Shown: in pieces, positions 25,978-41,967 of the stretch
How the letters are laid out: each line of letters begins with the position of its first letter
Numbering within the stretch: the first letter of the stretch is position 1
Made by a program: the position numbers and the translations under genes
Notes under the pieces: generated by a model
What the model saw: only the letters and a program-made list of their open reading frames with translations
What the model was told of the DNA's origin: nothing
The model's database searches: none
Origin: Escherichia phage vB_EcoP_ShWW44
Sequence record: PQ900156.1
Direction: 5' to 3' (one strand)
Length of the DNA: 64,000 nt

Positions 25978-26433
25978 CTACTGACATCCTATCAATGAGT
26001 ACATTAGGCTAACGTGCGGAGGTTTACACTGTAGCCGGTGTAGGTGGAGAAGACGGCAGGGTAGCTACCTGTGCTTAGTGTACTCTTTGATAGTTTTCGT
26101 AAGCGATTATGCGGTTTTTTAGAAATGAACCAATAACATAAATGCAAACGATGATGTTGTTCTGATGGCGGCGTAATAGCCTGTAAGTCAGCAAGGTCTT
26201 CCTATTCCTTGTAAATAAATTCGGCGCAGTGGCCCGCTGTAATTAATAATGGGCACACAACAGGTAAGAGCATTGGGTAATGTCAGCCTTGGTTCGAAGT
26301 CGAAAGACATGCGGTAATACCCAGCCAAAGTTCCAGTGCTCTTTCCGTTGTGGAAATGCAAGCACAACAAGTCCAGACGATATCTGAGTGACTTTAAAAA
26401 CAGATGGAGCCAGGTGGAATCCCTGGCAATCTA

Positions 26434-26499
26434 TTCCGGTGTAGGTACTAGTGTCGTGCACGGCATGAGTGTTCTGGTTCGAGTCCAGACGCCGGAACC
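26434..26499 (+). ncRNA. tRNA-like element: acceptor stem + T-arm + encoded CCA, no D or anticodon arm found
   Basis: 5' TCCGGTG pairs 3' CGCCGGA (one G-U); T-arm TCTGG-TTCGAGT-CCAGA; discriminator A then CCA; only 31 nt between acceptor and T-stem. Confidence 0.35.
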
Positions 26500-26597
26500 A
26501 ATTACCAGTTGCACGAGATGGCTTGGCATGTTCAAGTTTGGACTAAGTGTGACACCGCTAGATTGGAGGGCTGCTGCGGTAAGCTATAGACTCCAAC

Positions 26598-26625
26598 CGG
26601 GGGTTCGAATCCCTCACTGGTAACC
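26598..26625 (+). ncRNA. tRNA-like 3' module (T-arm + acceptor 3' strand + CCA)
   Basis: GGGGG-TTCGAAT-CCCTC, then ACTGGTA-A-CCA; only exact 5' partner TACCAGT is at 26502-26508, about 90 nt upstream. Confidence 0.3.
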
Positions 26626-26713
26626 AATTCAAAGTAGCATTGCACTAATCCATCCCGGAGTTCAAAGACCAAACATGGAGCAGTGCTACTTTGAATTAGA
26701 AGAATTAAGGTGG

Positions 26714-26752
26714 GTCTGGTGAAGTAGATAGGGTTCGATTCCCTCCGGTAGA
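26714..26752 (+). ncRNA. tRNA-like minihelix (acceptor-like stem + T-arm)
   Basis: TCTGGTG ... TAGGG-TTCGATT-CCCTC ... CGGTAGA; acceptor arms resemble those of element 26434-26499. Confidence 0.25.
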
Positions 26753-26794
26753 GTAATCTACTAGCGTGCTTGGTGCATGAATAAGACTTAATAC

Positions 26795-26822
26795 TGGTGG
26801 TTCGATTCCATCCCCCACTACC
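26795..26822 (+). ncRNA. tRNA-like 3' module (T-arm + acceptor 3' strand + CCA)
   Basis: GGTGG-TTCGATT-CCATC, then CCCCACT-A-CCA; no complementary 5' strand found within 80 nt. Confidence 0.25.
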
Positions 26823-27351
26823 AATTTGAGGTGTAACAGTTAAATCCAGTTGCCGGAAGTGCTATTCTAGATACGCTGCCAATGTGTGAACGGTAAGGCT
26901 GTACAGGACTCGGACTCCCACCTCAAACCAAAGTCGCCAGGTACTTATGGCAAACGGGTAGTAACGAACTAGTCATTCGTCAAACGCCCAACCTATTACG
27001 AGTCAGCAAGAACGCCTTCACTTAAACTTAAACAATATGAAAGCTTAACGCAGATAATATGTAGGGGTATGTAAGGATTGCGAAGAAGGAGCCAGTTAAA
27101 GCCTGGCATGACTCACCTATTAATAGAGAACATAGTCCTGATTGCATTGCACTCTAAAGACAATGCCGGTGAGACAGTCCGGCACTCTAATTATTGTAAA
27201 CATACCCACTGACGAGTGGGTATGAGTATGAGCAGACTATAATGCTCAAGTACAGTTATCTATTATCGGACTATCAATCCTGTTTGCTGGTACAAGCACC
27301 GGTGGTAATAGTTAACTGGCCTAGTCTCGTTAGCTGCGTTAAAGCTACTGA

Positions 27352-27376
27352 GTCCCTCTTCGGAGGAACTTTTTTA
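27352..27376 (+). terminator. intrinsic terminator with UUCG tetraloop closing the non-coding locus
   Basis: CCTC-ttcg-GAGG core with flanking pairs, followed by TTTTTTATTT. Confidence 0.5.
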
Positions 27377-27398
27377 TTTGAAAGTAGGAGAAATACTA

Positions 27399-27673
27399 TG
27401 GCTAAATATCGTAAAAAACCTGTTGAGATTGAAGCTTTTCAATGGGACGGTAGTCTTAATCTGAACAAAGAACCAACTTGGATAGTAGATGCTCTTCATA
27501 ATGGGGTAGTCTGGTTCTCTGGGAAGGATAATAAATTATGTATCAGAACTCTGGAGGGTATCTTAACTGCTTCCCCCAATGACTATATTATCCAAGGTAT
27601 ACATGGGGAGCTATATCCGTGTAAACCAGATATATTCCTGGAAACCTATATCAAATCAACAACCGTAAGCTGA
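27399..27673 (+). CDS. hypothetical protein (91 aa)
   Basis: Start set to ATG with strong RBS AGTAGGAGAAA (track ORF starts 27242). Confidence 0.6.
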
Positions 27674-27677
27674 AACT

Positions 27678-27836
27678 ATGATTGACCTAATTTCTACTCC
27701 GTATGCCTATGAGGTAACGGATAACCGAGGACATAAGTACTTGGTATTTGCAGGTAGCGTAGCCTATAACAACGCAGTCATGTTTAAGCACACACTAAAA
27801 CCACTCTATGAGGTTAATAATGGCAACAGTAAGTAA
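27678..27836 (+). CDS. small hypothetical protein (about 52 aa; below the ORF-track cutoff)
   Basis: ATG 4 nt after upstream stop; overlaps next gene start; weak RBS. Confidence 0.25.
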   Translation: MIDLISTPYAYEVTDNRGHKYLVFAGSVAYNNAVMFKHTLKPLYEVNNGNSK

Positions 27837-28200
27837 AGAAACAATCGAAGCTAAGATTAAGAGCGTTTACTATTTTAACGGTGCTGATGCAGTGAAGTCT
27901 GCATTCGTTGACCCTTCTGCACTACCGGCAGATGATTTGGCTAACCTGGGTCTAACAACCCATTGCATTATAATCCTGGAAAACGGATTCAAAATTGAAG
28001 GCGTATCTGCCTGTGTAGACCCAACTATCTATGATGAACAGAAGGGTCGTCAGTATGCATATGAAAATGCATTCAATAAGATTTGGGAATTAGAAGGTTA
28101 CCTACTACGTCAGGCACTGCATGAGAAAGAGGAGACTGCTAAAGATCTAGCTTCCTTTGCAGAAAACAACACCTGTGATGGTGGTGGTTGTACAATCTGA
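27820..28200 (+). CDS. N4 gp49-like small protein (family assignment tentative)
   Basis: Start at ATG with GAGG RBS; sits just upstream of the vRNAP gene; family recalled from memory only. Confidence 0.45.
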   Translation: MATVSKETIEAKIKSVYYFNGADAVKSAFVDPSALPADDLANLGLTTHCIIILENGFKIEGVSACVDPTIYDEQKGRQYAYENAFNKIWELEGYLLRQALHEKEETAKDLASFAENNTCDGGGCTI

Positions 28201-28282
28201 TCCAAAGGTGTAAGGTAGTTTTTACCGAAAGGTACTGAACTACCCGACAAAGTAGCAAGGCTCAAAAAGCCAAAACAAAACA

Positions 28283-28306
28283 AGCCCTCCTAGTGAGGGC
28301 TTTCTC
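28283..28306 (+). terminator. intrinsic terminator
   Basis: AGCCCTC-ctagt-GAGGGCT followed by TTCTCATTT. Confidence 0.6.
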
Positions 28307-28333
28307 ATTTAATGGAAAGACTCTAGGAGCACT

Positions 28334-28627
28334 ATGGAACTCTTTAAGAAGGGTCAGCTTATACCAAAGCGTATTGGTGGATTACATGTCCATCGTAAAG
28401 CCCGACACCGTTTAACCTTTGGTTGTGATGTACAAATTGATGGTAATAGCTGGATTGCTGTACCGGATACAGGAATTGCAATGGTTCTCTGTAAGAAGTT
28501 AGGTATTCGCAGAAACAACGGTACTTACCAAAACGTAGATGCAGATTTTGTAGATATTTACTTTGAAGCTAACAAGATTGATTATGTAATCAAGACTGGC
28601 AAAAAGATTCTTGTAGTTAAGAAATAA
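28334..28627 (+). CDS. hypothetical basic protein (97 aa)
   Basis: ORF with AGGAG RBS. Confidence 0.55.
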   Translation: MELFKKGQLIPKRIGGLHVHRKARHRLTFGCDVQIDGNSWIAVPDTGIAMVLCKKLGIRRNNGTYQNVDADFVDIYFEANKIDYVIKTGKKILVVKK

Positions 28628-28632
28628 AACAG

Positions 28633-28658
28633 AAGCCCCTCATTAGAGGGGCTTTTTC
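28633..28658. terminator. bidirectional intrinsic terminator between convergent genes
   Basis: AGCCCCTC-atta-GAGGGGCT flanked by an A-run upstream and TTTTT downstream. Confidence 0.7.
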
Positions 28659-28660
28659 AT

Positions 28661-31600
28661 TTAGTTAGTAAGATTGAGCCAAGGGTTCAGGTTATGGGCA
28701 CGCAAGCCTTGACCAAAACCGAAGGAGTAACCGAGGTTGCCCTGTGCAGCAATACTAAAGATGTTGTCCTGAATAGGCAAACCAACATTACCAAACATGG
28801 TAGGGGTTGGTGCTAACATAGCCATAGCAGCATGTACTGGGTTATTACGAATCATGGACACTGCAACTTTTGCAGAACGAATCTTAAAGTTGTAGAACCA
28901 CATCAGACCAACACTTTCCATATATCCACGGAAGCGACCAGGTAAACGGTCATAGTTAATGAACTCTTCTGTTACACGTCCCAGTGCCTCTTCACGAGTC
29001 TTACCTTTACGCTGAGTCAGTTCATCATAGATGATTGCTTTAGCAATAAAGTCAGAGTACTCAACTGTCTTCTGGATACCCTGGAAGAGAGCAGTATCCT
29101 TAGGGATAAGTGCATAACGACCTGCGTTACGTACAGACTTAGGCAGCTTATCAGCCAGCTTATCCATGTACTCGTGAAGTTTACCTTCAGTAATCAGGAT
29201 GTCATCACGTCCAATACCTGCGTCTGCAATTGAGGAGAACTCGCCAGCTTCCAGCAGAGGCCAGATACTTAAACGCTTATGGCTATCCGTGATGGACTGA
29301 ATCTCGGCCTTCAGCTTACGAATCTGGTTCGGGTTAGTAGCTGCACGTAATTCTGCTTCTGCATCTACCTGACGCAGACGAGATTTCAGGTACTGGTTAA
29401 TCTCAGCAGTCTTCTGTGGAATGCTCTTAGCAATGTTCTTAACAGGCACACCACGAGCAACCATCTGGTAAAGGTTAGCCAGGAAGTTAACAGCAGGTAC
29501 AACTACTGACTTAACCACAATCAGAGTCTTAGCTTCTTTAACTAAGTTCTGAACCAGGTTCTCACCACCCATTACATACTTATAGGCACGGTTACCAAAT
29601 ACACCCATCATAGCTTTCTTGAAGGTATCCAGTGTTTCTGGGGACCAGCGAGAATTACCAGACCAGGCATCACCAACAGAAGCTGCACGATAACCCAGAG
29701 CATCATTGAGCATGTCACGACGTACCCACAACTCACCTGGGCCAAACAGACTTTCTGCTTTCTGACGAGTTTCACTGTTCATCAGTTTAAGAGCATCAGC
29801 AGTCACTGGGTCCAGTTTAGAACCAAGAAGGTTAACGTACTGGGACTTATTAGATGCAGACATCTTAATGTCGTTCTCATACATGCTATGCAGGTTCTCA
29901 ATCAGCATATCGTTGAAACGCTGAGCCTTAGCTTCTTCCACCTGGCGACCACGCCATACACCGATTGCACGAGCAAGATGGTTCTCACCCTCAATATGCT
30001 TCAGCATGTTAGGGTCAATAGATTGCTCATAAGCAACTACATTACCATTGGCATCATATACAGGCAGCAGTGGTTCATTGCCACGTTCACCACGAGCCTG
30101 TGCTTTAGTGATACGGTCTACGGAAGGCTTGTCAGTAATACGACCAGCTACCATGGTTCCCATCGTAAAGCCTGTACCAAGGTCTACACCACCAGCAGTA
30201 TTTCGAACGTTCTGCAGGATACCTTGTGAGAACGGAGCCTGTGCCTGTACTGGTGCAAAGTAGTAGCTACGTGCTGGTCCACGGTTAGCAGAGCTACCTT
30301 GATATGTACCCAGACGTACATAGGATTTCTCAATCAAATCAGCAAACTGACTATCTTCAGCAACAATCAGGTTAACACCTTGCTTGCTATCACTAGGTAT
30401 ATATCCTTTGTACTGGTTCAAGGTTGCACGACTATCAGACTTAGCTTTAGCCATTTCATCTTTACGCTGACCAACCAGGTAAGAAGTAGCAAAGTCCATG
30501 CCTTCAATTTCTGTCTGAGCCAGTGAAGATAACACCTCACGGTCAGTCTTATTCATTGCTTCCAGTGCATACAGCGTAATGAGTTTATCCAGTTGAGCTA
30601 CATCTACAACGGAACGTGTAGTCTTACGTTCACCCAGTAAACGAGAAATTGCAGTAGCATTACGCAGCAGGTTATTACCAACCGTACCATTAATCATGTA
30701 CTGAGCCAGTTGCTTAGATTTACGATTAATCAGAGGCCAGTTACGTCCAGCTTGTTTCTGCAAATCTGCTTCCAGTTTATTAACCTCACGGTCAACAATC
30801 TTTTGGTCAGTCAGCAGGTCACGGATTTCATCCAGAGACATAGTATCTCGCAGAACAGCTAAGTCAGTTTTACCCATACCAGTATGCATTGCTTTCCACT
30901 CATCATTGGTCAGCTTACGGCTGAACTTAGATGCGATAGTGGTAGGCAAATGTTCACGGAACTGTTGACGGTCAGCCTGTACCTGTGCACGTACTGCTTT
31001 AATCAAATCATATACAGAAGCATTGCTCTTAGTACGTCCGATTATGTCATTAACCAGGTCATGGAAAGGCTGCCATACTTTACCCTGGTTCATTGCAGCC
31101 ATAACACCTTCAGCTACGATTGAACCATTCTTCTCTGTAGCAATAGCAGCTACCAATTGTGCAGCATGAGCAGCACCTTTAACCAATGGGTTCTTGGTAT
31201 TAGCTGCAACTTCACGAGCACCTTCCAAAGCACGGGTAGACAGTACATCAATAGAGTCCACCAGATACTGGTTAGCACGGTCGATAGCATTACCAGTAGG
31301 TGTAGCAACGGAATCATAGAAGGACTCTGCATTAAGACTGGTCTGCATGATTGTCTGAGCCAGTGCATCCATACCTTCCTGTACGTTAGTAGCTTTAGTA
31401 TCACCTGCTACACGAGCATTCAGACTAGCCATTGCAGCAGTACCGATGTTAGTCAGCATTGCGTCAACAGTATTGCCAGATTTCTTATCTGCTTTCATAA
31501 CAGGAATGTCAGCCAGTACCTTACGTACTTCTTCACTTACCATTGCCAGACCAACAAAGGTAGGCAATAAAGAAGAGCGACCCTGTGCATCAAACTCAAT

Positions 31601-34600
31601 GTTGTTAGCACCCATGATGGTATCGAACTTCTGCTGTGCATAGTAACGGTCAGCAGGGTTAGTACTATCTGGGTCAGCCATGAACGATTCAACAGTTAGG
31701 TTCTTAGTAACATGTGTGTAGTATTCCTGTGCACGAGCCATAGCAGCAGGGTTAATAGCAGCCTCAGTAGCCAGTGCAGCAACGATGTTAGTGAAGAGAC
31801 GCTGTTCCTGCATATTCATGGTGAAGCCATGGGCCTGAACATCACGGGTTACTTTGGTTGCATTTACTACTGCATCAGAGAACTTACCTTTACGAATTAC
31901 TTGCTGTACTGGTTCTGAACCAATGTAGTCAGTAATCAGCTTATCAAAGGTCTTACCTAACTCTTCCAGACGAGTATTGTCACCATATGCTTTGTTATGG
32001 AACAGGGTAGTGTCTTTGGCTACAGCAGCAGTAGGAGCTTGTCCACGCATTACTACAGCAGAGTTAAACAGTAGGCCAGAGAACATATCATCTGCATTAG
32101 CCGGAGCTTTCTTACGTCCAAATACCAGACGCTTGATTGCTTCATATACAGCCTGAACCATAGCTTTAAGTGCAGTGGTTTTCTTCTGCTTACCAATCAG
32201 TTCACGGTTGGTTAAACCCCAGGCCATGTACTCATTTAGTGCAGCAGCTTTAGCCATTGCTGGTTCAATAAAGCCATTGGACAGGTGACCGTTAATGGTA
32301 TTGAGTGCATCAGCATATGCTTCACGTACTGCCGGAGATTCATCCTTAACATCCAGAGCACGAAACTGGTTCATCAGGTCTTCAATATTCTGAACTGCTT
32401 CATTAGGAGTACCTTCATAATGAGCCAGTACAGATTCAAAAGTAGAGGCATGTACCAACTCATGAACCAGAGTCTCTAAGGAAGGGGTAACTAAATAGAT
32501 GGTCTTATCTTCAAAGTTAGTCCAGCCGTATGCATTACCAGCTTCAGCAGCTTCAATATCTTCCGGTGCTGGGCGAGTAATATTCTTCTCAATAGCATAG
32601 GCATCCAATTGAGCAGGTGTACCATAAACAACCTTATAGTCTTTAGCAGCGAGAGATTTCTGTATTTCTTTCAGTACTGCTTGCTGTTCAGGAGACATCT
32701 CTTTAGCCAGCTTAGAGATAGCAGTATTAGACAGCAGACGTACACCAGACTTCAGTACACGACCAACCTGTTCCATTGCTGGTACTTCTTTCACTGGTTC
32801 TGCTTTAGTAGCACGTACTGCATCACGACGCTTGTTTAATTCAGCATCAAACAGTTCGTTTAGCTTAGCTACTTGCTGGTCTACAGTAAGACCTTCCAGA
32901 GAGATTTTACCGTTGTTCACATAAGGAGCACCAACAGCAGCCATCTGGTCAACGGTGACTTGTACCTGGTCCATTACCTTGTGACGAATATCTACACCCA
33001 AAGCAATGTTACGCAGATTGCGTTCAATTAATGCAATACCAGAATCTTTAATCATAGAAATTTTATAATCTCTATCACCATCTACTCTGGTAATCTGAGC
33101 ACGCTGGTCATACTCCAGAGCAGATTTAGCGATAGCCTGTTTGGTTTCATCAGACAGTTTGCTGAAATCTACGTTCTTATGAAACTTAGCAAAGGAGTCA
33201 TAAACATTCTTGATAGGATTACCCTGCCAGGAAGTATATACAGCCTCATTAGCTTTACGACTTGCGTCAGTGATGTCATTGATACCAATGTTCATACCAT
33301 CAAAGATTTTCAGGGTATTCTTCGGAGCACCTTTCATAGTAGAAAGGGTCTGCATCATCATGCCATCACCAGTACCGATGGTCATAAACGGAATACCTGC
33401 AACACCTGCCTGTGAAGGAGCATAGATGCTCATTGGCACACGCATACGGTCATCTAAGTTGGTAGCCAATACTTGGTTAGCAACATCAGTATTCTCGCTA
33501 CCAGCAATGTAGAAAGTCTGGGAACCAGTCTCAATCATTGGAGCCAGTGGAGATAAGTGATTCTGAATTTCATTCAGTTCTTTCTGAGTTAAGAAATCAC
33601 CTTTCTTCCATGTTGGGTCTTTTTCTTTTTCTGCCAGTTTAGCCTGTACTGCCTGTTGGAACATATCCTGCAATACCAGTGATTGAATCTGAGTAGCCTT
33701 CTGCAAATTTTCAGTAGAGTACATCAGACCTTCACCAACAGTATTTCGGATACCATGTCGCATTGGCTCAACGAACAAGTGAAGCATGTTCTCTTGTAAG
33801 TTCTTCAGAGCATTACCGGATACAGTAAACTTCTGAGGGTCTAATTTACCGGTCAGAGCACCTTCTACCTGCTGAATAGACAACTCACCTTTACGCATAA
33901 CTGGAACATTGCCAGTTAGTGCTTCCATAGAAGTAAGGAAAGTATCCAGCATAGCCTGAGCATCGGCCTCAGACGCAGCCTCCTTACCAAACATAGCCAT
34001 AGCCGGGGAAATGCTAGGGTCAGCAGCACGGGCTTGCAGAACGTCACTGAAGCGTTCATAGATGGTATCAGTAATTGCACTAACCATTTTGCCAGCAATA
34101 CCACGAGCACCTGAACCATAAATGGTAATGGTCAGTGGGTTTTTAGCGATACCGCGTTTCAGGTCCAGAGTACCATCTTCCTTAAGATTGAAGTCTTTAA
34201 TGAATAGGTCCATTAACTTCTGGAGATGCTTCATCTGGTTCGTAACAGGAACGTTGTTACGATAAGTATTACGCAATTCATTCAGATGCCTTTGTAGACT
34301 ATTAGTGGATGCTTCATACAGGTCAACGCTGTCCTCATGCGAATGATGCTCGTTCATAGTCTTGCCAGCTTTACCGAAGAACAAGCCACCTTTAGCAGTA
34401 TTCTTAATCCAGTCTGGAGTGAACTTACCACCCGTCATTAATACCATTGCGTTGATTGGTCCGTTGGTTACACCATCAGCTTCAACGTACAGTGGGGTAT
34501 TAAAGTTGGCACGGTCATCACTGTTAAGATAACAGGCATACTCCATCAGAGCCATGAGAGCTACAAATGATTTATCATTACCCAAAGGGGTCTTCAGAAT

Positions 34601-37600
34601 ATCCACAGCATCAGTAGGTAAGTGCCCAGACTTATCAAACTCAACCATCATATCAACGGCAGGTTTCAATTTACCTTCCAGAGCTTTAGTCAGCTCATCC
34701 GACATAACTTCACGGGACATTTTATGAACTTTGATACCCAATGCCTGAGCCAGTCCAAGCTGGAAGTCAGAGAAGTCTTGACTGTTTTCATTACTTAAGT
34801 CGATGGTAGAGAAAGTTGGTAGGATTGCTTCACGTACCAGCTTAGCTGATTGTGGGTTGTTCTTACCAAGCATCTGCATACGACCTACACGGGTCATGTT
34901 GTAGCCGTAGTGAATAGGTGTAGTGCCAATGTCTTCTCTCTGTTCCTTAATCTGATTGATAACACCAAACAATGGAATCTTTGCATGGACTACGGACAGG
35001 TTCTTACCTTCCAGAGATTTAGCAGTATTCACATTCAGCAATTCTGGGGTAAGAGCACCAGCACCCATCAGTTCCAGAATGTTGTCACGACCCATTGCTT
35101 CATAGAAGTTAACCATAGGCATATGTACACGGAACTCTGTAGCCTGTTCTGCCTTAAGGGCAGCTTTCTGTTCCGGGGTATTCTTAACAGCCGGGTTACG
35201 TAACTGAGTTTGAGCCACAGAAGGGATATCATCACCCAGGTACAGTTTCTCTTCTGGTTCTAAAAGGACAGCTTCCTCAATAGCAGTAGGGAATTTGTTA
35301 ATGGCATCGTTATCATCTAACTTCTCAATGGTATACAGACCAACAGTCTTATTAGATTCTGGGTCAATCTCAGACACATCCAGCATAGACTCTTTAACTT
35401 CACCCATCTCAATGAGAGAAGACAGAATCTCTGTAGCCATTGCCATTGGGATACCCTTGGTATAACCCAGAGGTGCATTAGGATTACGATTAAGTCCCCA
35501 GTAAGATTCAATCTTTTGAGCCAATGAGTTAGTAGCTTCAACCAGAGTCTGAGCATTCTCGAAGTCAGCCAGAATACCTTCAGGTAACAGGGATGCTTCT
35601 ACACCAGTAATAGCAGCTACGTCTTTCATGTCTTTAATGGCAGCATTCTGTGTAGCAGTTAATCGCCATTGCAGACCAGCAAGTACAGCAGTCTCTAACA
35701 ACTGGTCATTGAACTTAAAGGTGTCACCATCTTTCTCTACGATGTTAAGTAACTTACCACCTACCCAACGGTTGGCCTCAGTACCTTCTGCAAAACGTTT
35801 ACCAACGTTCTTGTTAGAAAGGAACTTAGCAAGACGGTCAGACAGAGTAGTCTTCAGAGTTTCACCAAAATCAAACAAGTCCTGATAACGCTTAATCACA
35901 TCACTTGTGAGAGCGTTATTTTCTTTTTGAGTAAATGCTTCAAAGCGAGCAGCAGAAGACAGTGCTTTCTTAACATCAGTCAAAGGAGACACAGAACCAA
36001 TGGTACGAGACTTAGGTTCTTCTGGCAGAGAAAATGCTTTAAGGAACTGGTTCGGTGTCTTGTCATTGTTATAGACAGGGAACACTGTTTCCATTTCCGA
36101 TAGAGGTTTACCACCAACAGTATAGTCTGCTTTCAGTTGAGCCAGTGATACTTCTTCTTTCTCAACGTTATTGGTATTAAGCCCAGATGTATCTACACCA
36201 ATCTGAATCAGTGCATTGTTTGCTTCTACGAATGATTGAACAGTATTGAATTGTTCAGCAGTTAGCTTCTGATTATCAAACAATTGCAGAGATACGAACG
36301 GTTGCTCACTACCTTTATAGAAAGTAGAACGTACAGCACCAGTATCCAGAGACATGTCACGATAACCATCATGACCAAATACGTCAGACAGACTGATATG
36401 GTCGCCATTGGAACCAACAACAGTACCATCAGCGAATAGCCATGGACTATCTCTACGGTCACCATACTTATTAAGAGTATCTTGTGAAATAGTATTCTCT
36501 TTCACATAAGAATCTCTTTCAGATTCAGTAGGCTGTTCAACGATATCCTGTTTTTCAGACTGGTTCTCAGGTTCTTTTACAGTCTGTGGTTTAGACTCTT
36601 TAATAGTAGGTTCTGTTTTAACAGCTTCACTAACAGAGGGTTTAGTCTGTACAGTAGGGGTAACTGGTTCCTGTTTCGTAACAGGAGTTTCATCAACCTG
36701 ATTCACTGGTTCATTAGTCTGTTGGGATTGAGCAGCATCAAGATTGCCCTGACGGAACTCTTTAACTACCTGGGCAGCAGGTTTGTCCAGACGTGAATCC
36801 AATGGGGTAACTTTCACATGAGAAACATTAAGCTCCGGGTAAGCCGTAGCAAGTGCGTTAGCAATATCAGCTACGGTTTTGGCCTCCAGTCCTACTTGCT
36901 GGGCAAACTTAACAGACTTGGTATCATACGGATTGACACCGAGGCCAGTACGACTACGTACCCATTCACGCGAGGGAGTAAGAGCCTGATAATGGACAGA
37001 CTTATTCTTATCCGCATTCCCAGAAATCAGATGCTCATTCAACGCTCCGACCTTATTCTGCATGTGCTGGGCGAACTTCATAAAGTCGTCGAGATAAGCG
37101 GAGGCCAAATCGAAGTTACCAGAGTTGTACGCAGAACGAATGCGTTTAGCATGTTGCAACGCAGAGTACTGGCCTTCATTAGAACGAGATTCGTCGGTTT
37201 TAATCTGTTTACTAACAATGTCTTGAGGACGTAAGCCTAGTTCTTCTGCTTTAGCGTCAAATTCTCGTGCTCCTTGCAATAGAGCAGCAGCAGATTGCAG
37301 GGCAGCACGCTGACGATTCCCCAGTGTAATCTTACCTTCACTTGCATGTTTCAGAACCATGTTCACTGAATCTGCATCCAGTACTTCTGGAGACATATCA
37401 GCAGCCATAGCAATGTTGTTTGCCTGGGCTTGGTTAGCTTCTTCGGTAGCTTTCAGTTTACCTGCTTCAGCCTGTTCCTGAATCATGGAATGGATGGCAC
37501 GGAATGCACGGAGTACCTTCGGTGTATTCTGTACATTAGCCATCAGACCAGAGAACTGGTCAACGATATTAGCAGCAGGAGAACCCTGTTCCAGATTAGC

Positions 37601-39448
37601 CAGAGCACCCGGGTCACGGTTAATGAAGCTATCCATAGACATAATGTTGTCATACATCTGGATTGCAGCTTCCATTTGAACGTTAGGGTCTTCGGCAGTA
37701 TTAACCAGGTCAGCCATCTTCTGAATAGCTTCAACACGGTTAGTGGAACCAGAAACAGCTTCACGGATTGCTGGACTAGCTTGCTCCAGTTCTACTGGGT
37801 CAAACTTCATTACCTGAGTTAAGTCAGCAGCATACTGTGTAGCAGCAGCTTTCTCTTCAGGAGAAATATCCATTGCATCCACTGCTTCCTGAACAGTTGC
37901 TTGTGCTTGTTCTGCCTGAGCAGTAGCTTCTTGTGCAGCAGCGTTAACCGTAGCGTCTGATACAGGGGATGCTTGTTCGTTACGCTTAGCAACTTCTTCA
38001 CCACGCTGAACCAGGATGTTAGTAATAGGAGAAGCTACTTTTGCTAGTGCCTTACCAGCCAAAGAAGCACCAGCCAGGGTAGTACGTACAGCAGGACCAA
38101 CGGCAGCACCAGCAGCCTTAACAGTTGCACCAGGAGCTTGAGCAACTCCAGCAGAACCAAAGCCATACAATGCACCAAGACCAGTTTGTTCACCCACACC
38201 TTTAAGCAAATCACGCTTAGCATCTACATTACCCTGAATTGCCTTGTTCTGTGCGAACTGACTTGTACCAGACTGGATACCTTCTTCTACAGTCTCACGC
38301 AACATGTTAGAACCAGCACCAACCAGTGAACCTACCTTAAGTGGGTTAAGTTCAAACTTGGATACCAGTGGACCAGTAAGAGCAGCAACCGGAGCAGTTA
38401 AGCCAGCAGCAGTGATACCTGTTTCAGACGCAGTTTGACGACGTGCTTCTTCAGGAGATAAACCATCTTTAATATGCTGTTGGTATACAGGGGATTTAGC
38501 AGCCAGTTCACTGAACGGCATTTCCATAATTTCATTAGCAGTCTGTTGGTATGCTCCACCAGCTTCCATTCCACCAATTGCTATAGCAGGCGCAGCAACA
38601 CGACCAGTAGCCATTGCAACCTGTGCAGGACGTGAACCTAACTCAGCAGCTAGGGTAATACCCTTAACAGCTTTATCACCACCTACCATTACTTTACCGA
38701 GAGCAGATACACCACGGATAAGTGGACCACCGGTAAACAGAGAACCAACACCCTCAGCCAGACCATCTGTAGCAGCCATGCCATTGGACAAAGTGTTAGC
38801 AACTGAATCGTAAGCATCACGACCAATGCGAGACAGAGAAGCAACGAGTTCACTTTCTCCTTTATCAATATCCTGCTTATAGAGTTTCTCGTTTTCCTGA
38901 GCAGATATTACGTTCTGGTTCTGTACTACATTACGACGAGCATTCAGTGCATCAGACTGTAGGTTGTGTACACCTTTATTCAACCAGTCAAGACCGGAAG
39001 CAATGGATGCCCCGGCATTATCATTGACCAAACCTGTACCAAGAGCAGCAATGCCCCCAAGGGTATTAGCAACACCAAGACCAACACCAGAAAGGGTATC
39101 ACCAAGTGCTTCACCATATGTACGACTCTTAGTTAAATCACGACGAACAGCATTAGCTGCATTGACACGAGCATTGAGAATATCCATTCCTTGCTCATTG
39201 CCATACTTGTTTATGATTTCAAGAGGGGAGGCATTAGTAAAATCTGCCTGAATAGAACCTGGTTCAAATGCACCAGCACCTAAATCACCGGCACGGCCTG
39301 CCTGTAACTGGTAGGCGTTCTGTGGGGTTAATTGGAAAGGGCTTTGCCCTTGTTCAGCTTGTTTCCGAGAGGTTGCAGTAGAGACATCGACTTGCTTAGC
39401 AGTAGTGATGCTGTCTGCGAAACCTGCCAGACGGTCAAATGTTGACAT
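28661..39448 (-). CDS. giant virion-encapsidated RNA polymerase (N4 vRNAP-like)
   Basis: About 3600 aa; T7-like motif A YVEADGVTNGP, motif B RGIAKNPLTITIYGSG, motif C LKIFDGMNIG with the A and C aspartates about 392 residues apart; track start 39466 is TTG, ATG with AGGAA RBS is at 39448. Confidence 0.85.
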   Translation of the reverse strand: MSTFDRLAGFADSITTAKQVDVSTATSRKQAEQGQSPFQLTPQNAYQLQAGRAGDLGAGAFEPGSIQADFTNASPLEIINKYGNEQGMDILNARVNAANAVRRDLTKSRTYGEALGDTLSGVGLGVANTLGGIAALGTGLVNDNAGASIASGLDWLNKGVHNLQSDALNARRNVVQNQNVISAQENEKLYKQDIDKGESELVASLSRIGRDAYDSVANTLSNGMAATDGLAEGVGSLFTGGPLIRGVSALGKVMVGGDKAVKGITLAAELGSRPAQVAMATGRVAAPAIAIGGMEAGGAYQQTANEIMEMPFSELAAKSPVYQQHIKDGLSPEEARRQTASETGITAAGLTAPVAALTGPLVSKFELNPLKVGSLVGAGSNMLRETVEEGIQSGTSQFAQNKAIQGNVDAKRDLLKGVGEQTGLGALYGFGSAGVAQAPGATVKAAGAAVGPAVRTTLAGASLAGKALAKVASPITNILVQRGEEVAKRNEQASPVSDATVNAAAQEATAQAEQAQATVQEAVDAMDISPEEKAAATQYAADLTQVMKFDPVELEQASPAIREAVSGSTNRVEAIQKMADLVNTAEDPNVQMEAAIQMYDNIMSMDSFINRDPGALANLEQGSPAANIVDQFSGLMANVQNTPKVLRAFRAIHSMIQEQAEAGKLKATEEANQAQANNIAMAADMSPEVLDADSVNMVLKHASEGKITLGNRQRAALQSAAALLQGAREFDAKAEELGLRPQDIVSKQIKTDESRSNEGQYSALQHAKRIRSAYNSGNFDLASAYLDDFMKFAQHMQNKVGALNEHLISGNADKNKSVHYQALTPSREWVRSRTGLGVNPYDTKSVKFAQQVGLEAKTVADIANALATAYPELNVSHVKVTPLDSRLDKPAAQVVKEFRQGNLDAAQSQQTNEPVNQVDETPVTKQEPVTPTVQTKPSVSEAVKTEPTIKESKPQTVKEPENQSEKQDIVEQPTESERDSYVKENTISQDTLNKYGDRRDSPWLFADGTVVGSNGDHISLSDVFGHDGYRDMSLDTGAVRSTFYKGSEQPFVSLQLFDNQKLTAEQFNTVQSFVEANNALIQIGVDTSGLNTNNVEKEEVSLAQLKADYTVGGKPLSEMETVFPVYNNDKTPNQFLKAFSLPEEPKSRTIGSVSPLTDVKKALSSAARFEAFTQKENNALTSDVIKRYQDLFDFGETLKTTLSDRLAKFLSNKNVGKRFAEGTEANRWVGGKLLNIVEKDGDTFKFNDQLLETAVLAGLQWRLTATQNAAIKDMKDVAAITGVEASLLPEGILADFENAQTLVEATNSLAQKIESYWGLNRNPNAPLGYTKGIPMAMATEILSSLIEMGEVKESMLDVSEIDPESNKTVGLYTIEKLDDNDAINKFPTAIEEAVLLEPEEKLYLGDDIPSVAQTQLRNPAVKNTPEQKAALKAEQATEFRVHMPMVNFYEAMGRDNILELMGAGALTPELLNVNTAKSLEGKNLSVVHAKIPLFGVINQIKEQREDIGTTPIHYGYNMTRVGRMQMLGKNNPQSAKLVREAILPTFSTIDLSNENSQDFSDFQLGLAQALGIKVHKMSREVMSDELTKALEGKLKPAVDMMVEFDKSGHLPTDAVDILKTPLGNDKSFVALMALMEYACYLNSDDRANFNTPLYVEADGVTNGPINAMVLMTGGKFTPDWIKNTAKGGLFFGKAGKTMNEHHSHEDSVDLYEASTNSLQRHLNELRNTYRNNVPVTNQMKHLQKLMDLFIKDFNLKEDGTLDLKRGIAKNPLTITIYGSGARGIAGKMVSAITDTIYERFSDVLQARAADPSISPAMAMFGKEAASEADAQAMLDTFLTSMEALTGNVPVMRKGELSIQQVEGALTGKLDPQKFTVSGNALKNLQENMLHLFVEPMRHGIRNTVGEGLMYSTENLQKATQIQSLVLQDMFQQAVQAKLAEKEKDPTWKKGDFLTQKELNEIQNHLSPLAPMIETGSQTFYIAGSENTDVANQVLATNLDDRMRVPMSIYAPSQAGVAGIPFMTIGTGDGMMMQTLSTMKGAPKNTLKIFDGMNIGINDITDASRKANEAVYTSWQGNPIKNVYDSFAKFHKNVDFSKLSDETKQAIAKSALEYDQRAQITRVDGDRDYKISMIKDSGIALIERNLRNIALGVDIRHKVMDQVQVTVDQMAAVGAPYVNNGKISLEGLTVDQQVAKLNELFDAELNKRRDAVRATKAEPVKEVPAMEQVGRVLKSGVRLLSNTAISKLAKEMSPEQQAVLKEIQKSLAAKDYKVVYGTPAQLDAYAIEKNITRPAPEDIEAAEAGNAYGWTNFEDKTIYLVTPSLETLVHELVHASTFESVLAHYEGTPNEAVQNIEDLMNQFRALDVKDESPAVREAYADALNTINGHLSNGFIEPAMAKAAALNEYMAWGLTNRELIGKQKKTTALKAMVQAVYEAIKRLVFGRKKAPANADDMFSGLLFNSAVVMRGQAPTAAVAKDTTLFHNKAYGDNTRLEELGKTFDKLITDYIGSEPVQQVIRKGKFSDAVVNATKVTRDVQAHGFTMNMQEQRLFTNIVAALATEAAINPAAMARAQEYYTHVTKNLTVESFMADPDSTNPADRYYAQQKFDTIMGANNIEFDAQGRSSLLPTFVGLAMVSEEVRKVLADIPVMKADKKSGNTVDAMLTNIGTAAMASLNARVAGDTKATNVQEGMDALAQTIMQTSLNAESFYDSVATPTGNAIDRANQYLVDSIDVLSTRALEGAREVAANTKNPLVKGAAHAAQLVAAIATEKNGSIVAEGVMAAMNQGKVWQPFHDLVNDIIGRTKSNASVYDLIKAVRAQVQADRQQFREHLPTTIASKFSRKLTNDEWKAMHTGMGKTDLAVLRDTMSLDEIRDLLTDQKIVDREVNKLEADLQKQAGRNWPLINRKSKQLAQYMINGTVGNNLLRNATAISRLLGERKTTRSVVDVAQLDKLITLYALEAMNKTDREVLSSLAQTEIEGMDFATSYLVGQRKDEMAKAKSDSRATLNQYKGYIPSDSKQGVNLIVAEDSQFADLIEKSYVRLGTYQGSSANRGPARSYYFAPVQAQAPFSQGILQNVRNTAGGVDLGTGFTMGTMVAGRITDKPSVDRITKAQARGERGNEPLLPVYDANGNVVAYEQSIDPNMLKHIEGENHLARAIGVWRGRQVEEAKAQRFNDMLIENLHSMYENDIKMSASNKSQYVNLLGSKLDPVTADALKLMNSETRQKAESLFGPGELWVRRDMLNDALGYRAASVGDAWSGNSRWSPETLDTFKKAMMGVFGNRAYKYVMGGENLVQNLVKEAKTLIVVKSVVVPAVNFLANLYQMVARGVPVKNIAKSIPQKTAEINQYLKSRLRQVDAEAELRAATNPNQIRKLKAEIQSITDSHKRLSIWPLLEAGEFSSIADAGIGRDDILITEGKLHEYMDKLADKLPKSVRNAGRYALIPKDTALFQGIQKTVEYSDFIAKAIIYDELTQRKGKTREEALGRVTEEFINYDRLPGRFRGYMESVGLMWFYNFKIRSAKVAVSMIRNNPVHAAMAMLAPTPTMFGNVGLPIQDNIFSIAAQGNLGYSFGFGQGLRAHNLNPWLNLTN

Positions 39449-39517
39449 AGCAAGATTCCTGTTCAAACTTATATCGTATAAGAAGATTCACTGTACAGTA
39501 AGTGAATGTAAGAGAAA

Positions 39518-39533
39518 AGCCCCGGATGGGGCT
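39518..39533 (-). terminator. intrinsic terminator immediately upstream of the vRNAP gene
   Basis: AGCCCC-ggat-GGGGCT hairpin with U-tracts on both strands. Confidence 0.55.
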
Positions 39534-39551
39534 TTATTAGTATGTAAGATT

Positions 39552-41498
39552 TTATCGAGGTTGCATATAGGGAGGTAAACCCTCTGCTAATTTTCGATAA
39601 CGTTTAGCTCGTTCTTCATCTTCACGACTACGCTCACGTTCTACTGAAACATTAGAACGGAAGTTCTGTGGAACCAGGTTTCCTTGGTTAGCTACCACAG
39701 TATTAACAGCAGCATCGAGTGCAGCTCGTGCCCTTGCTAACTCAGCCTCACGAGCAGGGATAGTAGCAGCAAGCCCACTTTGACCAGCAGCTACACGACG
39801 ACGGGTATCAGCGAGTAAGGCTTCTGCTTGTGTTACCTGGTTCTGAGCGTTTTCAATATTACCCTGTACCTGAGTAAGAACATTATCACGAGCAGTAGCT
39901 TCAATACCTTCCCCACGTCGTACTGAACGTGCTAGTTCTCTGGCAACGGTATCGTCAATACGAATACCTCCTCCACCTTCATTGGAGATGAATGGGTTAA
40001 GTGCATCAAGTGCTCGACTAATCATACCTTCCGGTACGTTGGTAGTAGATTGTTTAAGAATCTCGGCAGCTACAGCAGGAGACTGCCCGGATTCCTGCAT
40101 AACATCATTCAGTCGAGCTATCATCCATCCTTTCTCAGAACCTTTGAAAGCATCCTTAAGAAGACGGTCTGCTACTTCACCAATGGTAGAGTTGTCACGC
40201 AATGCACGGGCATAGTTAGCAGTAATGGTTCCAGTATTATCTTCAGACTGACGTGCGGCAACTGTATTGCCTGCCATGTTTGAGACTACTTGTTGGGTCT
40301 GTAACTGATCAATAGGAGCACCTACTTCTGCCTGTGCAATTAACTGACGTGCTTCACTCCATGGCATATCCTTATAACCACCTACACCCAAGTCAGGCAA
40401 TGCAGCCCAAGTCTTGGAAAGGTTACCATTCTTACGGTCATTGAAGATTGCTTCAGCTATTTTGTCCTGTACTTCAGGAGTCATTTGCTGATTACGCCAA
40501 TCCGAACCAAGTACCTTGGGAGCATAGTCTTCCAGAGTAGCTTTATTAATCTGGAATGCTCCTACAGGAGAATGACCTTGCGACGGGTTATTAATCATAG
40601 TTTGCTGATGATTGGTAACCTCACCAAGGGTCATCTCGGTAATAGGCTTATCAGTAGCAGCAAAGGTATAGGTTGCATCGTAAGGTGATCCAGAACGAGT
40701 ACCAGCAGTGCCTGGAGCAGAACCAGAAGCAGACGTTGCATAAGTACCTGGGAATCTCTGGTTCACACCTCGCATGATTGCAGCACGTACACCAGGGGAA
40801 GCATTCTGCATAGCAGACTCTGCCAATGTAAGAGCATCCATAGGAGTGGAAGCACTACGGAAAATATCCGTCAGTATACCGGATGCAGCTTGTGAATCAG
40901 CATCATTACGTTGAGTCACACCCAAATCAAAGCGGTTCTGTGCTTGGTTAATAGCCTGACCACCTTGACCTTGCAGACGACTTAACATATCCAGTTGTTG
41001 GTCAGCAGGAAGTGCAGACAGTGCATCACGAGTCTGACTCAATGCAGCATTAATACGATTCTGGTCACCAGACTGATAAGCCTCAGACAATAAACGAATA
41101 GCTGGAGATGCATTATCTAATGCAGAGTCAGTATTCTGTAAACGACCAAACGTATAAGCATTGAAGTCATTAATTCCCTGTTGCCCTTGCTGAGTCAGAA
41201 GTGTACTTGCTCGCTCATCCAGATTCTGAAGGGTATGTTGGTTTACCAATGAAGGGTCAACCCCCTGAAATAGTGCACCGGATGCCAAAGCATTACGGTA
41301 TTCAGTAGGGTCTTGATACTGCATAGCATTCATCATGACGGCATTGCCAGCCTCCTGCTTGGCAGCGTTCTGGAAATTACCCAGTGCATCACTTAAGCCG
41401 GAGGTGGCGTTACCAATCATGTTGCCAAATGTGCGAATGCTGTCACCAACTCCAGAGAAGTTAGGTGCATCAACATTACGCCATGTAATTTGAGCCAT
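39552..41498 (-). CDS. virion protein (N4 gp51/52 position), possible lysozyme-like segment
   Basis: 648 aa; AGGAAA RBS; SPVGAFQINKATLEDY weakly resembles glycosidase motifs. Confidence 0.5.
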   Translation of the reverse strand: MAQITWRNVDAPNFSGVGDSIRTFGNMIGNATSGLSDALGNFQNAAKQEAGNAVMMNAMQYQDPTEYRNALASGALFQGVDPSLVNQHTLQNLDERASTLLTQQGQQGINDFNAYTFGRLQNTDSALDNASPAIRLLSEAYQSGDQNRINAALSQTRDALSALPADQQLDMLSRLQGQGGQAINQAQNRFDLGVTQRNDADSQAASGILTDIFRSASTPMDALTLAESAMQNASPGVRAAIMRGVNQRFPGTYATSASGSAPGTAGTRSGSPYDATYTFAATDKPITEMTLGEVTNHQQTMINNPSQGHSPVGAFQINKATLEDYAPKVLGSDWRNQQMTPEVQDKIAEAIFNDRKNGNLSKTWAALPDLGVGGYKDMPWSEARQLIAQAEVGAPIDQLQTQQVVSNMAGNTVAARQSEDNTGTITANYARALRDNSTIGEVADRLLKDAFKGSEKGWMIARLNDVMQESGQSPAVAAEILKQSTTNVPEGMISRALDALNPFISNEGGGGIRIDDTVARELARSVRRGEGIEATARDNVLTQVQGNIENAQNQVTQAEALLADTRRRVAAGQSGLAATIPAREAELARARAALDAAVNTVVANQGNLVPQNFRSNVSVERERSREDEERAKRYRKLAEGLPPYMQPR

Positions 41499-41510
41499 GA
41501 TGGTTTCCTA

Positions 41511-41954
41511 TTAACGAGTTAGCTTGTTAGCTGCAATGTAAGCATCAGCAGTAGATTGGTCACGGTTCTCTGCTGTAGCACGGCTACGAGCACGGTCTTC
41601 CAGCGCAGTGTTATAAGACTTAATCTGGTTGTTCAGGTTAGTGTTAGTAACACTCTTAGTAAAGTTCAACTGGTCTTTGGCTAACTTATTGGCCTGAAAA
41701 CCACCATAGATATTAGCTAATGAACCAATAGCACCTAGTCCTAACTGGAAGGTTGGTACGTTCAGACCCAACTGATTAGCTGAACCAGACAGGAAAGAAG
41801 TAGGGGTAGATGCACCCAAATTAGTACCCATACCAATAGCTGCACCTGGGTTATAGTTCATAGCTGGGGTATTAAAGTTCTGATTGTTATTAGACATCCA
41901 AGACATAGCAGCTGGCTGTGGGGTTTGGTTGCCTGTTAAGAATGACAAATCCAT
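41511..41954 (-). CDS. virion protein, hypothetical (about 148 aa)
   Basis: Start trimmed to ATG with AGGAGA RBS (track start is TTG). Confidence 0.5.
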   Translation of the reverse strand: MDLSFLTGNQTPQPAAMSWMSNNNQNFNTPAMNYNPGAAIGMGTNLGASTPTSFLSGSANQLGLNVPTFQLGLGAIGSLANIYGGFQANKLAKDQLNFTKSVTNTNLNNQIKSYNTALEDRARSRATAENRDQSTADAYIAANKLTR

Positions 41955-41967
41955 GGGGATTCTCCTG

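Follow-up and report, generated by a model that had tools for sequence, protein, structure and literature searches.

A full-length N4-type virion RNA polymerase gene (gp50) in a gamaleyavirus of Escherichia coli

The virion RNA polymerase (vRNAP) of phage N4, gp50, has already been dissected biochemically and, in 2025–2026, structurally at full length. It is a highly diverged family member that shares the right-hand fold of T7 RNA polymerase (RNAP) in crystal structures (PMC4496689), but the N4-type enzyme reads a DNA hairpin on a single-stranded template, whereas T7 RNAP uses a duplex promoter. The N-terminal domain of N4 gp50 has been linked to genome injection and to association with membranes, and cryo-EM does not resolve it (PMC13492108), the linker comprises residues 907–1006 (PMC13434306), and the C-terminal domain is needed for encapsidation and autoinhibits the polymerase (Pol) domain (PMC13492108, PMC13434306). 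The neighbouring genes of N4 encode two ejection proteins, gp51, which makes up a complex of the outer membrane, and gp52, which makes up a periplasmic tunnel (PMC13434306). A closer relative of the protein described here is gp50 of phage St11Ph5 (YP_010659910.1 / ATS92525.1), which has the same length (3595 aa), is 96% identical with zero gaps, and has the same neighbours. The gene itself is not new: in the St11Ph5 record the same locus already bears the annotation gp50.

Here we analysed a stretch of phage DNA of 64,000 nucleotides (the window). Positions 28661..39448 on the minus strand encode, with a probability of about 97%, the gp50 vRNAP of a Gamaleyavirus, an N4-like E. coli podophage. 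This gene is a hallmark of the Schitoviridae and fixes the phage type of the window.

The gp50 gene and the order of its domains

In the open reading frame (ORF) listing, the longest minus-strand reading of the locus (28661..39466) has 3601 codons and starts at an upstream TTG. The ATG start at 39448 yields a protein of 3595 aa with the N-terminus MSTFDRLAGFADS, which resembles that of N4 gp50, and the St11Ph5 gene is annotated with the equivalent ATG. The coding sequence of 28661..39448 (minus strand; ATG at 39446–39448, stop codon at 28661–28663) corresponds to St11Ph5 gp50 (37105–47892) minus an offset of 8444. An ORF of about 3600 aa had been predicted here, and the single uninterrupted ORF of 3595 codons from the ATG, for a product of ~390 kDa, bears this out; its size fits the N4-type pattern of one polypeptide of ~3,500 residues.

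Two outcomes named beforehand would have spoken against the identification, profile searches without similarity to N4 vRNAP and motifs in a non-polymerase fold; neither was obtained. The four Pfam families PF21894, PF21867, PF21769 and PF21624 (N4_RNAP_helical, vRNAP_dom_2, vRNAP_dom and vRNAP_plug) matched above cutoff with E = 1e-25 to 1e-100, and PHROG 2206 ('virion RNA polymerase') matched with E = 0 over profile positions 5–3405 of 3406. Comparison with full-length N4 gp50 (9PNQ, 9PNR, 11GP...) and mini-vRNAP (2PO4, 3C2P, 3Q0A) in the PDB also gave E = 0. Using phmmer, two stretches of the window protein, 1–990 (1229 bits) and 1132–3594 (3843 bits), were aligned to N4 gp50, and the identity is 70% across a 2482-residue alignment. 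The window protein is thus orthologous to N4 gp50 over its full length, and the order of N-terminal domain, low-complexity linker, Pol and C-terminal domain is kept.

Based on these alignments, the minus-strand ORF was divided as follows. The N-terminal domain (aa 1–900; 36749..39448), with boundaries mapped from N4, aligns to N4 gp50 1–1004 and is followed by linker 1, a low-complexity stretch rich in P, T, Q, E and K (aa 901–976; 36521..36748), and by an insertion domain (aa ~977–1109; 36122..36520). The Pol (mini-vRNAP) domain (aa 1118–2216; 32801..36097) carries the four Pfam N4 vRNAP domains and the matches to 2PO4, 3C2P and 3Q0A. The C-terminal domain (aa 2227–3595; 28664..32770) contains HELVH (aa 2329–2333; 32450–32464), a predicted zincin-like HExxH motif that is conserved in all five gp50s compared; such a region has been predicted previously (PMC5512222). 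The N4 protein has the same part order (N-terminal domain, linker, Pol, linker, C-terminal domain), catalytic motifs, plug module and HExxH region. Its identity to the window protein is 70% in Pol and the C-terminal domain and 44–88% per 100-residue bin in the N-terminal domain. The window gp50 is 95 residues longer, and the insertion and, among the contact residues, K267N also set it apart from that of N4.

The original prediction had this ORF leading the minus-strand structural block. This is so only when positions are counted along the plus strand; by direction of transcription, gp50 comes last in the late block and occupies its 3' end. Directly beyond its stop codon, a bidirectional terminator-like hairpin (28631..28656) lies between the convergent plus- and minus-strand blocks. 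A gp51 ortholog (39552..41498, minus strand; 648 aa, 46% identical to N4 gp51) is immediately upstream of gp50 in the same orientation, and a gp52 ortholog (41511..41954, minus strand; 147 aa, 59% identical to N4 gp52) lies upstream of both, an arrangement also found in N4. An ortholog of N4SSB (gp45) is located at 23304–24107. The strand layout of the window is plus / minus / plus, and an Rfam scan of the 64 kb at gathering thresholds gave zero hits.

Catalytic motifs, promoter contacts and hairpin promoters

The catalytic residues R424, D559, K670, Y678 and D951 of N4 are listed in PMC2784036, and the roles of K114, R119, W129, D901 and R904 in promoter contact are given in PMC4496689. Residue numbering for our alignment was validated on the N4 sequence. 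The T/DxxGR motif reads TRVGR (34880..34894, minus strand, as are all gp50 features of this section), with R1523 equal to N4 R424. Motif A is YVEADGVTNGP (aa 1654–1664; 34457..34489), with the catalytic D1658 equal to N4 D559, motif B is RGIAKNPLTITIYGSG (aa 1765–1780; 34109..34156), in which R1765, K1769 and Y1777 correspond to N4 R666, K670 and Y678, and motif C is IFDGM (aa 2048–2052; 33293..33307), with the catalytic D2050 equal to N4 D951. As predicted, motifs A, B and C lie in the central third of the protein (nt ~33300–34480), each occurring once, at 46–57% of its length. The two catalytic aspartates, which had been estimated to be about 392 residues apart, are separated by exactly 392 residues, and the same spacing is found between D559 and D951 of N4 (1556 and 1948 in the full-length protein). 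The match is not a chance one, because the motif blocks are identical to those of N4 inside the 2482-residue, 70%-identity alignment; all of them lie within the region that aligns to the solved N4 polymerase structures.

The description of the enzyme as T7-like is correct as regards the order and spacing of the motifs. Its motif order (T/DxxGR, A, B, C) is that of T7 RNAP, in which R425, D537, R627/K631/Y639 and D812 are the counterparts of R1523, D1658, R1765/K1769/Y1777 and D2050, and the spacing in motif B (R+4=K, K+8=Y) is the same. However, the aspartates of motifs A and C are 275 residues apart in T7 RNAP rather than 392, gp50 is four times larger, and the N4-type enzyme is virion-packaged (PMC13492108, PMC4496689). 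BLASTP between the two proteins revealed no significant overall similarity (best E = 0.2), in line with the literature on the N4 enzyme (PMC4496689), the best local match, to T7 RNAP 414–435, being at the T/DxxGR motif, and Pfam RNA_pol gave no hit in gp50 at E <= 0.01. The likeness is therefore one of motif pattern, together with the published structures of N4 vRNAP, to which gp50 is 70% identical.

Fourteen of the 15 catalytic and promoter-contact residues of N4 are identical in the aligned gp50: R424, D559, R666, K670, Y678, D951, K114, R119, W129, K268, K849, K850, D901 and R904. They include all five catalytic residues and nine of the ten promoter- or DNA-contact residues; among the hairpin-promoter contacts (K114, R119, W129, K267, K268, K849, K850, D901 and R904), eight of nine are those of N4. 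The –11 recognition element is represented by K1213, R1218 and W1228 (35765..35812), equal to K114, R119 and W129 of N4 mini-vRNAP, and the specificity-loop contacts by D2000 and R2003 (33440..33451), equal to N4 D901 and R904. The sole mismatch is K267 of the beta-intercalating hairpin, which is Asn here. The autoinhibitory plug module (aa 1558–1640; 34529..34777) is recognized by Pfam PF21624 (vRNAP_plug) with E = 1.5e-25.

Hairpin promoters had been expected in the early region. An N4-type hairpin promoter is absent from the 64-kb window, right end included, even when two mismatches are allowed, because the window is without the left 8.4 kb and begins at the equivalent of St11Ph5 position 8445. 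In St11Ph5, GCTYCGCNNNTWWTGGA occurs four times, all in the left 6 kb (nt 88, 894, 1164 and 5966), where 0.06 occurrences are expected; N4 has three (nt 93, 562 and 4551). Each of these hairpins, in both phages, consists of a 5–7 bp stem and a 3-nt loop, followed by a 4-nt A/T spacer and GG. Those of St11Ph5 have a G:C loop-closing pair, a central purine in the GGA template loop, and a GG start, and the hairpins of both phages agree with the published N4 promoter rules. The expectation of hairpin promoters in an early region, which would lie outside the window, is supported only indirectly, by the left ends of St11Ph5 and N4 and by the conserved contact residues; the four hairpins of the ~95%-identical St11Ph5 suggest what the putative cognate promoters of the window gp50 would be.

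A polymerase that acts as in N4 but has acquired an altered promoter specificity is improbable. K267N and a hypervariable region just before T/DxxGR could be read in this way; each of the four gamaleyavirus sequences in the comparison has Asn in place of K267, and St11Ph5 has four promoters against three in N4, with different stem sequences. However, the residues that make base-specific contacts (K114, R119, W129, D901 and R904) are identical, the St11Ph5 promoters obey the N4 rules, and in N4 the bases of the stem can vary freely except at the conserved positions (mechanism literature, including PMC4496689).

For an N4-type gp50, the course of events can be drawn from the biochemistry and structures of N4 vRNAP (PMC4496689, PMC13492108, PMC13434306). 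A few copies would be packed in the capsid, for which the C-terminal domain would be required, and would leave it one domain after another, like 'beads on a string', by way of the tail and a channel of gp51 and gp52. The enzyme would at first be autoinhibited, with plug and motif B loop closed and the C-terminal domain docked, and would be activated on binding, at the left genome end, a DNA hairpin promoter extruded by gyrase and stabilised by SSB. It would then transcribe the early genes, including those for the RNAPII subunits, leading to a cascade of three polymerases.

Comparison with relatives, a recombinant tract and a lone cysteine

The whole window is collinear with positions 8445–72444 of the St11Ph5 record, without indels and at ~95% identity. 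Nucleotide identity was 94.4–95.5% at 100% coverage over the 50 kb tested, and 94.4% in an ungapped comparison of 24556–41556. On this sequence evidence, together with the plus / minus / plus layout, the window phage is assigned to the genus Gamaleyavirus (Schitoviridae, Enquatrovirinae), in agreement with its original designation as N4-like. The genome announcement of vB_EcoP_ShWW44 (PQ900156) gives a length of 72,444 bp, equal to that of St11Ph5, with which this phage shares 94.72% identity at 100% coverage, and reports one tRNA-Ala; these figures agree with the measurements on the window. A divergence of 5% with no indel over 64 kb might suggest an artificially mutated copy of St11Ph5, but we rejected this reading on the basis of the share of third-position differences given below, a transition to transversion ratio of 2:1, the match of the divergent tract to a natural allele in PD205, and the publication of a phage with the same length and identity.

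In gp50, 504 of the 701 nucleotide differences from St11Ph5 (72%) fall at third codon positions, and the codon differences comprise 460 synonymous and 154 nonsynonymous changes. The gene is under strong purifying selection. Of the 154 amino acid differences, 78 are concentrated in aa 1401–1900, where the window carries a PD205/ECBP1-type allele, whereas the St11Ph5 segment is nearly identical to that of N4. A recombinant tract inside Pol (33449..35848, minus strand) shows 75–92% nucleotide identity to St11Ph5 and 91–95% to PD205, and includes a patch (aa ~1484–1511; nt 34916–34999) unlike any record in the searched collection. Among members of the genus, segments of the gp50 Pol domain are swapped by recombination.

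The window gp50 has a single cysteine, C1639 (nt 34532–34534), where the plug module ends; relative to St11Ph5 it is R1639C. By the composition of the other proteins of the same phage, ~24 cysteines would be expected in a protein of this size, and the gp50s of N4, St11Ph5, PD205 and PGN829.1 have none. The absence of cysteine is a noted characteristic of the vRNAP family, not a defining requirement (PMC2784036); strictly, C1639 breaks this trait, but in essence the protein still shows it. This single exception to a family-wide lack of cysteine is one of three details of modest value here.

These features bear on whether gp50 might be a pseudo-enzyme, a homolog that has lost polymerase activity and whose remaining role is in ejection or structure. 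Within the whole gene, divergence does peak in Pol (75–81% nucleotide identity to St11Ph5 at nt 34649–35248), in a tract that includes the patch without a known relative, and R1639C in the plug module is unique. However, the catalytic residues and motif blocks are all identical to those of N4, the divergent tract is an allele common in other gamaleyaviruses, the differences are strongly skewed to synonymous changes, and St11Ph5 keeps hairpin promoters that would otherwise have no reader. We consider such a loss of activity very unlikely. The idea that gp50 is a DNA polymerase or else anchors to the cell wall, taken from GenBank labels of homologs ('DNA polymerase' in PD205, HK2, U1G and PBM-2/3; 'gram positive anchor domain protein' in JX415535), has practically no chance of being correct and is refuted by homology, over the full length, to the RNA polymerase of N4, whose biochemistry and structure have been characterised. 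The RefSeq versions, which name these genes virion RNA polymerase, and the presence in the window of a separate DNA polymerase gene, a gp39 ortholog (15977–18556), also speak against it.

An insertion domain in linker 1

The gp50 of the window, identified above as an N4-type vRNAP, has an insertion of ~130 aa in linker 1 that N4 and PGN829.1-type gp50s do not have; PGN829.1 thus shows that a phage without it is viable in nature. Its model has a compact alpha/beta fold and is confident (pLDDT 88); a single-sequence AF2 model was poor (pLDDT 57) and was not used for the fold search. The invariant residues are SPxL, DG, DH, R and Q, and include D1016, H1017 and R1040 (D42, H43 and R66 of the segment). 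The insertion was matched by none of the models in Pfam, NCBIfam and PHROG, and no significant match was found among solved structures. In a word-indexed protein database, which does not seem to return giant proteins, a search with the single sequence of the insertion gave zero matches and a profile search matched only a 166-aa stand-alone phage protein.

Homologs of the insertion occur in some vRNAPs and in phage polyvalent proteins with SLT (transglycosylase), SNF2-type helicase or methyltransferase domains, as well as in proteins with LPD22/38/39, InPase, TrwC relaxase and LPD7 domains. One of them is a plasmid-encoded LPD7 domain-containing protein whose gene adjoins mobC. 'LPD7' was rejected as a name for the insertion, since LPD7 occupies aa 699–777 of that plasmid protein and the homologous stretch is at ~1087–1217. 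Identity to the copies in non-vRNAP proteins is 60–65%, which suggests recent domain shuffling.

Polyvalent proteins (PMC5512222) resemble gp50 in being giant and multidomain, in being delivered with the DNA, as gp50 would be by analogy with N4, and in having a HExxH zincin-like region; Iyer et al. 2017 (PMC5512222) explicitly name N4 vRNAP as a member of the class. The partners listed for N4-like RNAP modules are MPTase, lysozyme, PBECR1 and ART, out of 131 domains in all (PMC5512222). Tentatively, it may be a previously unmodelled 'polyvalent-protein' domain that is injected as an extra 'bead' and has an early effector role of its own, perhaps in countering host defence or in acting on the incoming DNA, although we regard this as a possibility on the doubtful side. 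Linker 1 of an injected polymerase can accommodate an optional domain that is shuffled horizontally, and this bears on 'beads-on-a-string' translocation and on phage cargo.

Virion RNA polymerase gene and its catalytic motifs

The gene for gp50, the ortholog of the virion RNA polymerase (vRNAP) of the reference Escherichia phage N4, occupies a single minus-strand ORF, 28661..39466. The TTG six codons before the ATG is a mechanical extension, and the ATG at position 39448 gives a protein of 3595 residues with the N-terminus MSTFDRLAGFADS. Motif A (YVEADGVTNGP; aa 1654–1664, nt 34457–34489), motif B (RGIAKNPLTITIYGSG; aa 1765–1780, nt 34109–34156) and motif C (IFDGM; aa 2048–2052, nt 33293–33307) are all encoded on this strand, so that the sequence-level claims of the original prediction, a giant minus-strand ORF carrying the three motifs, were all right and their coordinates were confirmed. 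D1658 and D2050, the catalytic aspartates, have a spacing of 392 residues. Alignment places their N4 gp50 counterparts at residues 1556 and 1948, corresponding to D559 and D951 of mini-vRNAP (gp50 residues 998–2103; PMC4496689; residue names from PMC2784036), and the spacing of about 392 stated for N4 mini-vRNAP is thus exact in both proteins.

The predicted similarity to N4 gp50 was borne out by both BLASTP (70% identity over 2482 residues) and profile searches. Four Pfam domains scored above threshold, namely N4_RNAP_helical (1.5e-100), vRNAP_dom_2 (5e-54), vRNAP_dom (1.5e-52) and vRNAP_plug (1.5e-25), and the PHROGs family phrog_2206 ('virion RNA polymerase') spans the whole protein. A phmmer search of PDB sequences matched the full-length N4 gp50 structures (9PNQ, 9PNR, 11GP and others) as well as the crystal structures of mini-vRNAP, all with E = 0, in two stretches (aa 1–990 and 1132–3594). 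The call is a correct identification of a gene already known and annotated. In ON922919, PP514361, MZ394712, PV029541, PV053165 and JX415535, gp50 orthologs carry a wrong label, either 'DNA polymerase' or 'gram positive anchor domain protein', the second of which probably stems from the P/T/Q/E-rich linker.

The motifs had been described as T7-like, and their order, as well as the motif B spacing (R+4=K, K+8=Y), is identical to that of T7 RNA polymerase. The best single local BLASTP alignment between the two proteins covers the T/DxxGR block (IHYGYNMTRVGRMQ in the window, IWFPYNMDWRGRVY in T7). Overall similarity to T7 RNA polymerase was not significant by BLASTP (E = 0.2), and a Pfam search of gp50 gave no match to RNA_pol. 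This agrees with the published picture of N4 vRNAP as a highly diverged family member, recognised from its motifs and crystal structure (PMC4496689).

Fifteen experimentally defined N4 residues, with roles described in PMC4496689, were transferred through a five-sequence alignment, whose numbering was validated by the agreement of every residue name with the N4 sequence. Fourteen are identical in gp50, namely the catalytic residues R424, D559, R666, K670, Y678 and D951 and the contact residues K114, R119, W129, K268, K849, K850, D901 and R904 (N4 names). The sole exception is K267 of the beta-intercalating hairpin, replaced by Asn (aa 1366, nt 35348–35350, minus strand) in all four gamaleyavirus sequences (window, St11Ph5, PD205 and PGN829.1). 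The HExxH motif of the N4 vRNAP CTD, a predicted zincin-like peptidase according to Iyer et al. (PMC5512222), is kept as HELVH at aa 2329–2333.

Genome layout and relation to phage St11Ph5

The window is collinear with positions 8445–72444 of St11Ph5 (NC_070873.1; Gamaleyavirus, Schitoviridae), shifted by 8444 throughout; megablast aligned the 50 kb tested at 94.4–95.5% identity and 100% coverage in single ungapped pieces, which upholds the assignment to the N4-like phages. Ungapped identity over window 24556–41556 is 94.4%, and nucleotide divergence is about 5%, with no indel detected in the approximately 67 kb compared. The genome announcement of vB_EcoP_ShWW44 (PQ900156) likewise gives 72,444 bp, the length of St11Ph5, with 94.72% identity and 100% coverage to that phage, and one tRNA-Ala, values in keeping with the window. 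The differences of the window from St11Ph5 look natural: 504 of 701 fall at third codon positions, 460 of the differing codons are synonymous vs 154 nonsynonymous, and the transition to transversion ratio is 2:1. The gp50 annotation of St11Ph5 (37105–47892) corresponds exactly to window 28661–39448, and gp50 of the two phages aligns gap-free at 96% identity.

Large ORFs occupy the plus strand up to about 24.1 kb, with smaller genes on to about 28.6 kb, switch to the minus strand for 28661–61407, and return to the plus strand from about 61.6 kb (St11Ph5 annotation). The three-block layout originally proposed is thus real and common to the window and St11Ph5, and the left 50 kb of N4 contains the same plus-to-minus switch at gp50. 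This gene leads the minus-strand block only in having its lowest coordinate (28661); in transcription order it is promoter-distal, the last gene of the late block, stopping 5 nt short of a bidirectional terminator-like hairpin (28631–28656). Directly upstream are the orthologs of gp51 (46% identical to N4) and gp52 (59%); in N4 the first makes up an outer-membrane complex and the second a periplasmic tunnel, and vRNAP is released through these (PMC13434306). A 366-codon plus-strand ORF (46027–47127), on the strand opposite the region of the major head protein gene (46246–47448, minus strand), is most likely spurious.

The Pol domain of gp50 is a recombination mosaic. In a tract at about nt 33449–35848 (minus strand), nucleotide identity is 75–92% to St11Ph5 and 91–95% to PD205; the window is PD205/ECBP1-like there, and the St11Ph5 segment is nearly identical to N4. 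Just before T/DxxGR, a collection search revealed a private patch of about 28 residues (nt 34916–34999, minus strand), for which no record in the collection exceeded 87% identity over 95 aa. The only cysteine of gp50, C1639 (TGT, nt 34532–34534, minus strand), sits where the plug module ends, 19 residues ahead of the motif A aspartate. The family is otherwise cysteine-free (none in N4, St11Ph5, PD205 or PGN829.1 gp50), relatives have Arg at this position (CGT in St11Ph5), and the Cys allele was found in none of 147 phage records and in no IMG/VR contig; this cysteine could be a genuine, rare variant or an artefact of sequencing.

ARAGORN detected a plus-strand tRNA-Ala(CGC) gene at 25908–25979, also annotated in St11Ph5; it fell below every Rfam gathering score (best, tRNA-Sec, 30 bits vs a threshold of 47). 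Downstream on the same strand, a stretch of about 1.1 kb (approximately 26000–27100) that carries no gene annotation in St11Ph5 is better conserved than anything else in its surroundings (98.6–99.4% identity to St11Ph5 vs about 94–95%). It contains four extra T-arm motifs, GGTTCGAnTCC (26474, 26602, 26732 and 26799), and sub-threshold tRNA-like candidates under relaxed ARAGORN settings. These motifs may represent degenerate or non-canonical tRNA genes.

An insertion domain in linker 1

Alignment revealed an insertion of about 130 residues, not of low complexity, in linker 1, between the NTD and Pol parts of gp50 (aa ~977–1109, nt 36122–36520, minus strand). Neither N4 nor PGN829.1-type gamaleyaviruses carry it; 28 gamaleyavirus records do, G7C among them. 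It had no sequence match in Pfam, NCBIfam, PHROG or PDB and no significant match among solved structures. When 1.84 billion cluster representatives were searched exhaustively with HMMER, 21 homologs came up, among them one distant vRNAP and a 166-aa stand-alone protein on a phage-like contig. One giant-protein homolog also has SLT, ResIII/Helicase_C, methyltransferase and LPD39 domains, and others have LPD38, LPD22, InPase, SLT or TrwC relaxase domains. A Vibrio plasmid protein encoded next to mobC likewise contains the homologous region, outside its LPD7 domain. In a 19-sequence alignment, certain S, P, L, G, D, H, R and Q residues never vary, and AlphaFold2 run with this alignment gave a model with pLDDT 88 and pTM 0.80. 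Homologs thus occur in polyvalent proteins of phages and plasmids and as the stand-alone protein. The most fitting description of the insertion is that of a polyvalent-protein domain so far unmodelled.

Hairpin promoters and proposed mode of action

The window starts at St11Ph5 position 8445, past the RNAPII genes, and the early region therefore lies outside it. From the coding-strand sequences of N4 promoters P1 (GTTGC-TTC-GCAAC-TTAT-GGA) and P2 (GAAGC-TCC-GCTTC-TTTT-GGA) we derived the degenerate pattern GCTYCGCNNNTWWTGGA, which had no match in the window, lacking that region, even with two mismatches. It matched three sites in N4 (93–109, 562–578 and 4551–4567, the last just upstream of gp15) and four in St11Ph5 (88–104, 894–910, 1164–1180 and 5966–5982) vs 0.06 expected, each of the latter upstream of early genes. 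Thus, St11Ph5 has one more promoter than N4, upstream of a gp2-like gene cluster. Under the published N4 rules (PMC4496689), a G:C pair closes the loop, the loop has 3 nt with GGA or GAA on its template strand and a central purine at -11, the A/T 'ruler' is 4 nt long, and the start is CC on the template. All N4 and St11Ph5 sites obey them, so that the predicted reading of hairpin promoters by vRNAP is, by analogy with N4, well supported for the lineage.

On the N4 model (PMC4496689, PMC13492108, PMC13434306), a few copies of gp50 would be packaged in a CTD-requiring manner, and receptor binding would lead gp51 and gp52 to assemble a trans-envelope conduit, whose channel of about 30–35 Å the loosely linked domains of vRNAP could thread. 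The enzyme would be kept inactive by contacts of the plug and of the motif B loop, as well as by CTD docking. Supercoiling driven by gyrase would extrude the promoter hairpins, with E. coli SSB stabilising that of the template strand, and binding via W129, R119 and K114 (-11/-10) and D901 and R904 (-9/-8) would open the cleft. Early transcription would then begin and help to draw the genome in. At the sequence level, every element needed for this N4-type mechanism is conserved, and gp50 would be expected to share the activities of its N4 counterpart.
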